Shown here: in pieces, positions 8,040 through 11,413 of the stretch | Layout of the letters: the number at the start of each line of letters is the position of its first letter | Position numbering within the stretch: the first letter of the stretch is position 1 | From: a bacterium | Lineage (GTDB): Bacteria > UBA8248 > JACPRG01 > G963555815 | Reading direction: 5' to 3' | DNA: 64,000 nucleotides | Assembly (NCBI GenBank): GCA_965261595.1 | Contig: CBDHDG010000006.1 | Location: 864,001-928,000, forward strand | The notes under the pieces: model-generated | What the model was told of the DNA's origin: nothing | Databases searched by the model: none | What the model saw: the letters and a program-made list of their open reading frames with translations, nothing else | Program-made: the position numbers and the translations under genes

Positions 8040-8114
8040 AGGGAAGAGTCCCCCGCTCTAGGGTTTTGTTGGACACTCGATTGATCCATGATTCATGGAG
8101 AAAGGGGTGTCGCG

Positions 8115-8501
8115 ATGAACGAACAAAAGCAAGAGGGGGCTTTGGCGGAGGGCGCCCGTAGGGCGAACGGAGCCAAGGCCCCAGGGCATCGCAGTGAGCG
8201 GGGTCGGTTCTCCTGCCAGCGCAAGCGGGAGGCGGTCCTGCGTCTTTTGCGGGGCGAGAGCCTGGAGACGCTCTGCCGCGAGTTGGGCACGACAGCGGCT
8301 CGGCTTTCCGCCTGGCGCGAGGCGTTCCTTCGCGGGGGCGAGGCGGCGCTCAAAGCCCGCCCGGCGGATGAGCGGGACGAGGAGAACGCCCGGCTCAAGG
8401 CCAAGGTGGGCGAACTCACGATGGAGGGCGAGGTCCTGCGGGAGAAGATCGACCGCCTGGAGGCCGGCCGCCCTTTAGCCGGCAGGAGGTGGAGGCGATG
8501 A
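8115..8501 (+). CDS. IS3-family transposase OrfA (HTH plus leucine zipper)
   Basis: RFSCQRKREAVLRLLRGESLETLCRELG..WREAF..LKAKVGELTM; slippery heptamer C CCT TTA at 8471-8477 leads into the OrfB (-1) frame. Confidence 0.85.
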   Translation: MNEQKQEGALAEGARRANGAKAPGHRSERGRFSCQRKREAVLRLLRGESLETLCRELGTTAARLSAWREAFLRGGEAALKARPADERDEENARLKAKVGELTMEGEVLREKIDRLEAGRPLAGRRWRR

Positions 8502-9517
8502 GTCAGGCCCGCTTCACCTCCACGGGCAGAGCCTACGGCCTGAAGCGGGTGTGCGCCCTTTGGGGCTTGGCGCGCTCCACGGTCTACGCGCAACGGCGGC
8601 AAGAGGCGGTCCCCGTTCATGAACGCCCCACGCCCAATAAGCGCGGCCCTGTGGGCCCGTGCACCGATGCGGAACTCCTCGGCCACATCCGGCAGGTCCT
8701 GGAGGACTCTCCCTTCCATGGCGAGGGCTACCGCAAGGTGTGGGCGAGGCTGCGCTTCGCGGGCATCCGCACCAGCAAGGAGCGGGTGCGTCGCCTGATG
8801 CGGGAGGCGGGGCTTCAGGCCCCCCACCGGGTGGGCAAACCCCGAGGTCCCAAGGCCCACAACGGGACCATCCGCACCGAGCGGCCCGACCGAATGTGGG
8901 GCACGCACATGACGACGACGGTGACCACCGATGAGGGGATGGCCTCGGTGTTCGTGGCGGTGGATCACTGCTCGGTGGACTGCGTGGGGATCCATGCGGC
9001 CAAGAGCGGCAACCGCTTCGAGGCCCTGGAGCCGATCCGGCAGGGGGTCGCCGAGCGCTTCGCCGGCTTGGAGGCGGACGTCGCCGAGGGGCTTAAAGTT
9101 CGTCATGACCACGGCCCCGCCTATCTGTCCGATGACTTTCAGCGGGAGATCGCCTACCTGGGCATGACCAGTTCGCCCAGCTTCGTGCGGGCGCCCGAGG
9201 GAAATGGCTACTGTGAGTGGTTCATCCGCATCTTGAAGGAGAATCTCCTGTGGGTGCGCTCTTTCGCCACCGTAGAGGAACTGCGGTGGGCGCTGCTTGA
9301 GTTCAAGAACCCGTGATTATGCCCTTGACGCAGTAAGACACAAGATATGGTGGTCCCTCGAAAATTGAATCCGACCCACTACATGTGGTATATGGAACTT
9401 CAAAGGGTGGAAGCCCCGAGGGAACCCCGGGGCGTTGCTACAAGAGAGGACCTCACAGACCCTCCTTGTAGCAAATCCCCAAGCCCGTGTCAACCTCGAT
9501 TTTCTGGGGGTCTGCCC

Positions 9518-9868
9518 ATGCGTACTATCGGCGGTTGCATACTTACAACTGCCCTCATCGCATCTTCCGCCGTCATGGCTGGAGAATCCAACAAGGCCTG
9601 TTTTATCGGAAAAGGTGCGGTGTACAGCCCCGCTTATGTGGATTTGGAACGAAGAAAACTCATACTTCGCATGTTGGACGATCGCGATTTGGTAGCTTTG
9701 TATAAACTTGGATACCGAAACGCAAAGGAGAAATGGCGTATTTTCATGGTGAGTGAGCATCCAAAAGGATTCCAATACCTGAAGAGCATCCCTGGCTCTA
9801 CGACTTTCCGTTTTGAAGGGGAATTCAAGGTTTTTGAGACGTTGTGCGAGTTCATCTCGTGCAAATAG
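9518..9868 (+). CDS. Hypothetical exported protein (116 aa), cassette ORF1
   Basis: Signal-peptide-like MRTIGGCILTTALIASSAVMA; mature part aligns end to end with ORF2. Confidence 0.7.
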   Translation: MRTIGGCILTTALIASSAVMAGESNKACFIGKGAVYSPAYVDLERRKLILRMLDDRDLVALYKLGYRNAKEKWRIFMVSEHPKGFQYLKSIPGSTTFRFEGEFKVFETLCEFISCK

Positions 9869-9890
9869 GTGGAAAATAAGATTTACAAGT

Positions 9891-9967
9891 GCAGCGCCAG
9901 GGGATCCCGCCCCTGGCGCTGCGGTTCCATCACCACCCAACCTTGAAGGAGGACTGGGGCAATGGAA
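9891..9967 (+). promoter_or_regulatory. Structured leader of ORF2: 13-bp perfect hairpin plus a segment complementary to the start codon region
   Basis: gcagcgccagggg/cccctggcgctgc (9891-9922); ttccat (9925-9930) complementary to atggaa (9962-9967); RBS gaaggagg between them. Confidence 0.6.
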
Positions 9968-10249
9968 GCAAAATGCTTTCTTAAGGAAAAGGCTTTTAGC
10001 CGACCCGCCTATGTCTCCCCGAGAAAACTTAAACTGCTGGTGCAGGTTCTTCAGGACAGAGACTACTTGGCCGTAGAGAGACTTGGAGGAAGATTCAACA
10101 AAAAGCGGAGGCGTGTATTTTTTGTCAGGAAACACCCGCCCCAACATAGGTATCTCAATAGTCCCAAACTTGAGAAGGTGATATTCAGGTTTGCCGGTGA
10201 ATTTGAAGTGAGGATTGCATCGGCGCAACAGGACATCGCGTGTGAATAA
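9962..10249 (+). CDS. Hypothetical protein (95 aa), cassette ORF2, paralog of ORF1 without signal peptide
   Basis: RBS GAAGGAGG upstream; shares CF..PAYV..KL..L.DRD..LG..HP..YL.S..FRF.GEF.V..I.C with ORF1. Confidence 0.7.
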   Translation: MEAKCFLKEKAFSRPAYVSPRKLKLLVQVLQDRDYLAVERLGGRFNKKRRRVFFVRKHPPQHRYLNSPKLEKVIFRFAGEFEVRIASAQQDIACE

Positions 10250-10251
10250 GT

Positions 10252-10324
10252 GCCACGGCTGGGGTATACGGCCCCAGCCGTGGCGTTCCATTAACCCGCA
10301 GCTTGGAGAGCCCAGGCAATGGAA
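10252..10324 (+). promoter_or_regulatory. Structured leader of ORF3, same architecture as 9891-9967
   Basis: gccacggctgggg/ccccagccgtggc (10252-10284); ttccatt complementary to aatggaa (10318-10324); GGAG between them. Confidence 0.6.
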
Positions 10325-10534
10325 TTTAGATATGAAGGATTTGACGTTTTTGGATGGTTCATCTCCGAAGCAGCCTCTAGGGTTATTGATCTTCTCTTCT
10401 ATGCGGGTTTCTACTTGATGGGGATAAGGAATAAGAAACCGCCGAAGAAACGCATCCCACTCGAAATTCGGGGCTCTTACGTCGGGCCACCAGCCATCAT
10501 CAATGGGAGGATATGTGGTTCCACGGGTCCCTAA
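10319..10534 (+). CDS. Hypothetical small protein (71 aa), cassette ORF3
   Basis: Begins at the same leader position (ggcaATGGAA) as ORF2; one hydrophobic stretch followed by a basic patch (RNKKPPKKR). Confidence 0.45.
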   Translation: MEFRYEGFDVFGWFISEAASRVIDLLFYAGFYLMGIRNKKPPKKRIPLEIRGSYVGPPAIINGRICGSTGP

Positions 10535-11041
10535 AAGTGACCCCCTCCTGTTGGATAACCACAACATGTAGTGTCTCAAAATCGCACCTATATCTTGTGT
10601 CTTACTGCGTCAAAGGCATAATCACGCAAGAACCTGTATAACCATCATTGGATTCTCGAGGGCTACGGCTACCGAACGCCGGCCCAGGCAAGGCAGGAAA
10701 AACTCGCTCAAGTTGCGGAGGCCGCATGAGGTCGAATACCCTCACCCGAGTGTCCAATAACCCAGGGGCGGTCCAAGAGAAGGGAAAGTTTAGACCATAA
10801 TGCGCAATCAAATGAATCGGCTGATCGCCGCGCAGTTCATAAATCAAGCATGCTTCCCCTTCCGATGGAGTAGAATTCCTCTCCGGACAAGGATTCACCG
10901 CTTTTCGTAAATCCCGAACATGCGGGCGGACAATCCATCATCAGAACAGCGGGAGGGTTAAACAAAGGTCATCTCGGGAAATCTCTGTTTCGTTGTCTAA
11001 ATCACGCCTTAAAAGGGATGATGAAGCGCGAGGAGGGAAAA

Positions 11042-11413
11042 ATGAAGAAAACCGGTGTTGGGCTGTTACTCGCACTGCTTCTCAGCCTTGGGTTTATTTC
11101 CAGCGCCGAGAGCGCAAAGACATCCGTCGCCGGCTGCGTGAACACCGTTTGCCATGCCTGGTCCTCCGACGGGGATTTGACCCTGATGTTTTGGGTGAAT
11201 AAGACGCGGTTTGTCATCAATCCGAACCGCATCAAACAAAATCGAATCTCAAGCCCCGCCAAGCTGACTCGCGGCCAACTGGCTGAATGGGAACCCATTT
11301 TGGAAGAGCTCCGAATGGCCATCGCGCGCAAAGCGGACGTCAGGGTCTGGTATGACAATTCGTCAAAGTGGGTGACCGATCTCAGGATTCGGTTTCAAAA
11401 GCGGTGCAGGTAG
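11042..11413 (+). CDS. Hypothetical secreted protein (123 aa)
   Basis: RBS GGAGGG; signal peptide MKKTGVGLLLALLLSLGFISSAESA; three Cys in the mature part. Confidence 0.75.
   Translation: MKKTGVGLLLALLLSLGFISSAESAKTSVAGCVNTVCHAWSSDGDLTLMFWVNKTRFVINPNRIKQNRISSPAKLTRGQLAEWEPILEELRMAIARKADVRVWYDNSSKWVTDLRIRFQKRCR

Follow-up and report, generated by a model that had tools for sequence, protein, structure and literature searches.

The locus described here raises the question of why two structured leaders of the same design stand ahead of two different genes, one shortly after the other. The window, a 64,000-nucleotide stretch of a bacterial contig, contains in each leader a 13-bp stem-loop (SLII) followed by a weaker stem-loop (SLI) that spans the Shine-Dalgarno sequence and the start codon. 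In leader 1, SLII is located at 9891-9922 (arms 9891-9903 and 9910-9922, 6-nt loop) and SLI, representing the AC' allele, at 9925-9967 (Shine-Dalgarno sequence 9946-9952, ATG 9962). SLII of leader 2 begins 2 nt past the stop codon of ORF B and occupies 10252-10284 (arms 10252-10264 and 10272-10284, 7-nt loop), followed by the B'C allele of SLI at 10286-10325 (Shine-Dalgarno sequence 10305-10308, ATG 10319). As stated in a first-pass annotation of this DNA, both stems are perfect, with 13 of 13 pairs Watson-Crick, and they differ in sequence by compensation: four of the 13 pairs are changed on both sides and none is broken. In leader 1, one additional G separates the stem from the GTTCCAT segment. 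The pattern from linker to start codon occurs twice in the window and in none of 100 shuffles. Folding z-scores of the leaders are -5.5 and -5.6 on the plus strand and -5.3 and -7.5 on the minus strand.

The 6.17-Mb genome has 104 perfect stems of at least 13 bp, of which 88 are distinct. Eight of them have a Shine-Dalgarno sequence and an ATG 15-55 nt downstream, and two of these eight are the leaders. The same annotation held that the ttccat segment pairs with ATGGAA and so occludes initiation. The pairing itself exists: Watson-Crick pairs cover the ATG over 6 bp and 7 bp, and among 838 control gene starts these lengths are equalled by 18 and 9, respectively. However, no compensatory change is seen in it, and in a third homologue, from genome G030, it is reduced to 3 bp, which 280 of the 838 controls equal. 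Start-codon occlusion on the mRNA is possible, and would act through SLI, the weaker of the two helices. The broader view of a conserved, structured and probably regulatory element at a translation start is borne out by the third homologue, which keeps the stem.

Both leaders are carried by a 1,315-bp element (9312-10626), a transposase-less cassette of the IS1595 type with 37-nt inverted repeats. The left repeat (9312-9348, plus strand) is 97% complementary to the right (10590-10626, minus strand); in the latter a weak inward promoter-like motif is visible by eye, but a consensus scan found none. The 8-bp target-site duplications, read from the sequence, lie at 9304-9311 and 10627-10634. The cassette cuts a host ORF with an integrase domain (8489-9316, plus strand; 305 aa in intact copies) that belongs to a multicopy IS3-like insertion sequence. 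This host element covers approximately 8050-10775 of the window and has about 170 copies in the genome. Just outside the cassette, a 131-aa ORF (11018-11413, plus strand) has a signal-peptide-like start and no Pfam family.

The genome that contains the window (G000) has ten full copies of the cassette and one truncated left end. Three copies are of 1,315 bp and identical, six are of 958 bp (type AC') and one is of 958 bp (type B'C). The 8-bp duplication is present in nine of the ten full copies; the copy that lacks it (G000:C6:1438454-1439497) is accompanied by another, incomplete right end at a distance of 86 bp. An empty site is seen in assembled contigs of four runs, which skip 1,323 nt, the length of the element plus 8. 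The cassette has cargo genes only and no transposase of its own; elsewhere in the genome there are 46 IS1595 transposase matches. One autonomous IS1595 element (G000:C7:637984-639734) has its first 18 terminal nt in common with the cassette ends, and its transposase scores 200 bits against NF033547 (cut-off 75). The shared ends and the identical copies at different sites suggest that the cassette would be mobilised in trans by an IS1595 transposase. Four insertions are clearly inside genes; in three of these the cargo strand runs with the gene, and in one the antisense frame discussed below does so. The other six are intergenic or unclear; as no bias is seen among the four, insertion orientation gives no support to an anti-polarity role. 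In-frame read-through from the host gene was also rejected. Element plus duplication is a multiple of three in the G000 forms (966 and 1,323 nt) but not in G030 (514 nt), and each of the three frames meets a stop codon within the right end.

Several related structures were observed in passing. Near the left end of the window cassette there is another tandem hairpin pair, "leader 0" (9413-9480), which is not matched by R1, the covariance model of the leaders described below. It is approximately 73% conserved in a cassette of genome G006 (L016:1490-1600), and on its minus strand in both genomes a near-consensus -35 box, a 17-nt spacer and an imperfect -10 box pointing toward the left end can be recognised by eye. 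The G006 cassette (L016:945-1720) is likewise of the IS1595 type and transposase-less, and encodes a 103-aa CxxC protein together with a tRNA-Cys-like sequence not called by ARAGORN; its second copy (L010) is interrupted by an IS. Paired palindromic boxes that resemble NrdR sites are located in the ends of the window cassette (9338-9390 and 10558-10601) and in other IS1595-type ends in G000, G006 and G030. The first of these overlaps an inward promoter-like motif, and box spacing varies between elements. A further IS1595-type cassette with related ends (L001; G000:C5:447433-450663) carries a DNA methyltransferase-like gene, so labelled from its motifs, and is interrupted by the same IS3-like element that hosts the window cassette. 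Finally, G000 contains a second cassette family of 907-908 bp (G000:C7:234873-235779 and ten further copies), in which a 1-bp insertion shifts the frame of the single cargo gene in 10 of the 11 copies.

The presence of two leaders in one cassette can be explained from the two 958-bp sisters. The AC' sister contains gene A, leader 1 and orfC', and the B'C sister contains gene B', leader 2 and orfC. They have one base difference in nt 1-196, one in nt 666-958, and strong divergence between these segments. The window copy is almost certainly a hybrid of the two, consisting of AC' 1-665 joined to B'C from position 309. Comparison of the parental cassettes places a 6-nt microhomology at the crossover (9971-9976, plus strand), and the hybrid carries the AC' base at element position 188 and the B'C base at 685. 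The AC' form, with 9976 joined to 10334, was assembled in all four runs examined. In run X5, from a second study, the single contig over the element is also of the AC' form, at a depth of about 3 that does not imply absence of the hybrid. The direction of recombination is fixed because the N-terminus of B' is full and aligns with A, and because MEAKC aligns gap-free to the starts of orfC homologues from other sources. Each parent has one leader, heading orfC in both cases, and the hybrid is their recombinant; the doubling of the leaders therefore stems from one crossover. Leaders 1 and 2 are two alleles of the orfC 5' leader, derived from two parents. Accordingly, the idea of a portable module reused for unrelated genes has to be given up, and the observation that the same leader heads two unrelated ORFs applies to the protein bodies only, as ORF B starts with five codons of the orfC family. 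The doubling as such is an ordinary recombination accident in a known kind of element.

ORF A (9518-9868, plus strand; 116 aa) has a signal peptide predicted from its sequence and is a paralogue of ORF B (42% identity over 79 aa, E-value: 9e-20); family and homologue searches matched no family or homologue to it. ORF B (9962-10249, plus strand) is chimeric, with five N-terminal orfC' codons joined to a B' body that lacks its signal-peptide region. Wider searches, including one of its own genome, found no homologues of A/B' (one search gave scores of 0.85 or less). The fold model for this family is poor (pLDDT 47.8), and Foldseek returned nothing at an E-value of 0.001 or better. The natural downstream gene of both leaders is orfC (10319-10534, plus strand; 71 aa), which is predicted to encode an amphipathic helix (residues 10-38) followed by a basic tail. 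OrfC members are 70-78 aa long and have this helix in models and a basic tail in most cases. Their best 19-residue hydropathy (0.5-1.3) is below that of a clear transmembrane segment, and none matches a family. OrfC could be a toxin, a function that is possible but unsupported.

Relatives of orfC are P0003, P0004, copies in G030 and G021, and a degenerate G000 copy whose leader is cut off by an IS; as protein homologues, only P0002-P0005 were found. The three homologues with DNA (the degenerate G000 copy, G021 and G030) end near an IS1595-type terminus, as read from the sequence. OrfC was not found in viral sets, plasmids and phages, nor did orfC match anything in the plasmid collection. Five metagenome and five genome loci were rejected as OrfC homologues: the match is limited to a 24-27-residue N-terminal stretch, and all ten are treated as chance. 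A weak candidate (L072) shares only the C-terminal motif, and another (L073) is unrelated. The third leader homologue is part of a 506-bp cassette in G030, a genome of another family of the phylum, that holds the leader and orfC only. Although G030 orfC is only 37% identical, its leader preserves the length of the stem, the terminal GC and the G4/C4 top, as well as the distance to the start and the gene linked to it. The G021 homologue is without such a leader.

R1, a covariance model of the kind that had been suggested as a check, was built from leaders 1 and 2 and the G030 leader alone. A search of 51 phylum genomes (at most 88 candidates scored per genome) placed only the training sequences above 25.5 bits. 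Eleven weak R1 loci lie outside the training set; the four inspected are terminators, GC-rich coding sequence or a chromosomal leader. Over 28 of 30 IS1595 loci, the best score is 19 bits. In viral contigs, none of 11 matches to the leader pattern has an upstream 13-bp stem, and a second pattern set gave 15 matches, of which one scores 26.9 bits with R1 and the rest 11.7 bits or less. The single higher match (L137:575-659) has a GC content of 76% and no start-codon register in the alignment. BLASTN of leaders 1 and 2 and leader 0 against plasmids gave chance matches or none. Comparison of the three leaders shows four double changes in the 13 SLII pairs and none in 10 SLI pairs; shuffle controls (5-23 of 500) are not probabilities here, and three sequences cannot give significance. 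The leader can be regarded as a candidate structured RNA family, absent from Rfam and tied to an orphan small protein on IS1595 ends.

The consensus of the three leaders folds better on the antisense strand (-35.6 versus -30.5 kcal/mol), with 92.8% of 69 cells over the three sequences paired, versus 82.6% on the sense strand; for the SLI cells, the values are 87% antisense and 70% sense. The difference arises mainly because C-A mismatches of the sense strand become G-U pairs in the antisense. SLII of G030 folds at -17.1 antisense versus -10.5 sense, with three sense C-A positions and a single one of the opposite type, numbers too small for significance. For SLI, the antisense advantage in the three leaders is -4.4, +0.5 and -2.6 kcal/mol, compared to a mean of -2.8 in C/A-rich control leaders; these values are reached by 31 of 87, 76 of 93 and 47 of 85 controls, and so are not above them. 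The corresponding advantage of RepX, the antisense RNA of the IncQ plasmid R1162, is -11.4 and is reached by 2 of 87 controls. A 10-bp antisense run over the start of leader 1 is equalled by 3 of 838 controls, while the runs of leader 2 and G030 are equalled by 25 and 201, respectively.

RF00043, the family of RepX, is the best of 4,227 Rfam families for leader 2 (25.4 bits, E-value: 0.13, cut-off 55), and for leader 1 it gives nothing at E-values up to 10. Unrelated genomic sites score 25.4 bits with RF00043 and 24.7 with R1. The RF00043 genome searches scored part of the candidates, and the leaders cannot be ranked by them. In a 46.6-kb set that includes RSF1010, the RepX locus is the first of 24 R1 matches (23.8 bits), on the RepX strand and in the start-codon register. 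However, a chromosomal hairpin-plus-RBS scores 22.8 bits with R1, and a chromosomal leader of G021 scores as high as RepX. The RF00043 and R1 likenesses are one similarity measured twice, and both are at chance level in whole genomes. The leader is not an RF00043 member, as its score is below the 55-bit gathering threshold and the downstream gene is orfC, not IncQ repA.

The opposite strand of the cassette has a property of its own. An antisense frame that keeps the register of A, B and C (9317-10579, minus strand) is free of stop codons for 420 codons from the first start, or 430 from stop to stop, and crosses both leaders. It is open for 311 codons in both sisters and 430 in the hybrid. In G030 it runs for 113 codons, is broken by one stop and continues for about 55; in the degenerate G000 copy, it is open for 106 of about 112. 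TTA, CTA and TCA, the codons that are read as stops on the antisense strand, are found in none of the 454 codons of the five cargo ORFs, versus an expectation of 9.9 based on genes with similar third-position GC (P about 2e-5), while other A-ending codons are common (36 of 140). The non-coding parts have one stop in 252 codons versus 10.6 expected (P 4e-4). Because the frame was first noticed in the window element, these statistics partly include the data of its discovery; when A, orfC' and the non-coding parts of AC' are excluded, a hand calculation gives 0 versus about 5.7 in coding and 1 versus about 6.2 in non-coding sequence. The sequences share ancestry, yet 26 of 41 conserved A/B' residues use different codons. 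No alignment is obtained between the peptides encoded opposite A and B', and the peptide is not conserved. General avoidance of these codons by IS1595 elements can be dismissed: 22 IS1595 transposases have 64 antisense stops versus 62 expected, and the 907-bp cassette shows no avoidance, nor do the G021 gene and two other cargo genes. In the autonomous element noted above (L004), an antisense frame of 306 codons covers the transposase gene, between a passenger gene and a small ORF of the same strand; at its GC level, this frame is not significant alone.

The antisense frame of the cargo is likely to be under selection, and the antisense strand is probably transcribed and translated across the leaders, either now or in the source DNA of the cargo. 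The statistics speak for a junk frame being kept open opposite the cargo of these cassettes, hairpins and non-coding parts included. Termination of the antisense RNA at SLII is disfavoured because the frame stays open beyond it. No intrinsic terminator (GC stem plus U run) was found on either strand at 9250-11100, and the G030 stem has one marginal terminator-like site on the antisense strand. A scan limited to sigma-70 types found no promoter on either strand of the window element or the G030 element.

A working model for the control of orfC can be formulated from these features. The leader would be a two-hairpin translational control region working on both strands, like FinP/traJ or RepX/repA. 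On the mRNA, SLI would cover the ribosome-binding site and start codon and keep orfC expression low, and SLII would be a stable, non-terminating stem. A transcript of the opposite strand would enter from the right end of the element, cross the orfC start, fold into the complementary hairpins and pair or interfere with the orfC mRNA. The junk reading frame would keep this transcript translatable and protect it from Rho, which is encoded in the genome, so that the RNA would not have to be short or to possess a promoter and terminator of its own. Taken whole, this mechanism is offered tentatively, as a plausible account that falls somewhat short of being the probable one. It is weakened by the lack of sigma-70 promoters in both elements and of terminator-like sites in the window element, by the chance level of the RepX likeness and by an SLI antisense advantage within the range of C/A-rich controls. 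In addition, it rests on three sequences, one of which (G030) may be decaying, the G021 orfC has no leader, no FinO/ProQ gene was found, and the hairpins of the antisense strand would be melted by ribosomes translating its frame. In its most specific form, which is unlikely, one IS1595 end would drive an antisense RNA through the whole cargo, a junk frame held open by selection between the two inverted repeats would escort the RNA past Rho, and a RepX-like double hairpin would make it a regulator of a small cargo protein. If correct, the transposon would have an antisense regulator escorted by ribosomes, possibly serving as an addiction module or allowing insertion without polar effects in either orientation. 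Should the leader and the antisense frame form one circuit, it would illustrate by what means a long antisense RNA persists in a cell that has Rho.

Some of the same observations could be accounted for by structure in the mRNA alone. SLII would then be a stabiliser or an RNase III-type processing stem between the upstream cargo gene and orfC, SLI would occlude the start until opened by processing or upstream translation, and the antisense frame would have another purpose, such as avoiding polarity in the source DNA of the cargo. Both G000 leaders fold equally well on the sense strand, and the rarity among gene starts of their pairing over the ATG (18 and 9 of 838) fits this explanation, as does the position of the B'C stem, which starts so close to the upstream stop codon that no room is left for a promoter. 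It is nonetheless rather doubtful: the pairing over the ATG has no double change and shrinks to 3 bp in G030, where SLII is poor on the sense strand and there is no upstream gene to couple to. An unlikely alternative is that only SLII is important, acting in a generic way to protect 3' ends or as a pause stem, or that neither helix is under present selection, SLI being incidental to a C/A-rich tract that precedes a purine-rich Shine-Dalgarno sequence. Quasi-palindrome repair, a mechanism at the DNA level, could keep a stem perfectly paired, and all 26 pairs of the two G000 stems are indeed Watson-Crick with no G-U, as such repair would give. That C/A-rich control leaders fold better antisense by default and that the chromosomal G021 leader scores like RepX are also in favour of this alternative. 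Repair would not, however, account for the fixed position, and the stem features, start spacing and linked gene are kept in a different family with an orfC of only 37% identity.

The hairpins might also be DNA sites for cassette exchange, attC-like or HUH-type, at which cargo is swapped or added at a fixed distance; the first-pass annotation had proposed a single-stranded DNA recombination site of this sort. Both sisters are 958 bp long with near-identical flanks and a poorly alignable middle, and this divergent middle ends 15 nt into orfC, exactly at the hybrid junction. The junction itself, however, is explained by ordinary 6-nt microhomology in coding sequence, the exchanged units are paralogous replacements rather than unrelated cassettes, and the hybrid arose once, as its three copies are identical. 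No integron integrase in the genome reaches the cut-off (best 78.5 bits versus 265). An attC site has an imperfect stem with extrahelical bases between two core sites; the stems here, as read from the sequence, are perfect and lack both extrahelical bases and the attC core-site order. Exchange at the hairpins is therefore very improbable. Translational control of orfC by structure and an antisense transcript remains the preferred reading, and it is in this light that the leader and frame can be compared to known systems.

A search of open-access full text found no published account of the leader or the antisense frame. The cassette itself is of the type known as mobile insertion cassettes (MIC), the non-autonomous members of the IS1595 family. 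It has in common with non-autonomous IS1595 cassettes the shared terminal inverted repeats, 8-bp duplication, cargo, lack of a transposase and many near-identical copies; IS1595 ends and an 8-bp duplication are described for MTnSag1 and tISCpe8 in PMC5704250. It differs in that two sisters recombined into a longer hybrid that then spread (three copies), and in that its cargo has a conserved structured leader and a stop-free antisense frame, neither of which is present in the 907-bp family of G000. The frame is reminiscent of the ambigrammatic frames of narnaviruses, which, according to PMC6884476, keep a codon-aligned reverse frame open by avoiding the same three codons that are read as stops opposite. 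The frame described here, by contrast, belongs to a bacterial DNA cassette, extends across non-coding hairpins as well and encodes a peptide that is not conserved.

The leader would resemble systems in which a structure covering the start is combined with a cis antisense RNA on a mobile element, namely IS200 tnpA/art200 and the leaders of type I toxin-antitoxin systems (aapA1/IsoA1). PMC4513863 describes translation of IS200 tnpA as held down by mRNA structure over the start and by the cis antisense RNA art200. In the window cassette, the gene that would be regulated is cargo and not a transposase, and, unlike a type I toxin, OrfC has no clear transmembrane segment. A close parallel is to RepX of R1162 (IncQ, RF00043) and FinP of the traJ system, which PMC8136791 describes as antisense RNAs with two stem-loops, complementary to a ribosome-binding site and a start codon, with SLII of FinP the more stable. 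As in these RNAs, the antisense strand of the leader has two stem-loops of which the weaker is complementary to the RBS and ATG. The short spacer, the GC-rich stem with a G4/C4 top, the short U-poor tail and the length of about 75-80 nt are further points in common with RepX. Differences are that no antisense promoter motif was found by the sigma-70 scan at the matching position, within the 5' end of the target gene, that no FinO/ProQ gene was found in this 96.7% complete genome, and that the target would be a 71-aa cargo gene rather than one for replication or transfer. Whereas RepX is a short RNA, the antisense strand of the cassette is an open frame, which makes a long translated RNA more likely than a short one.
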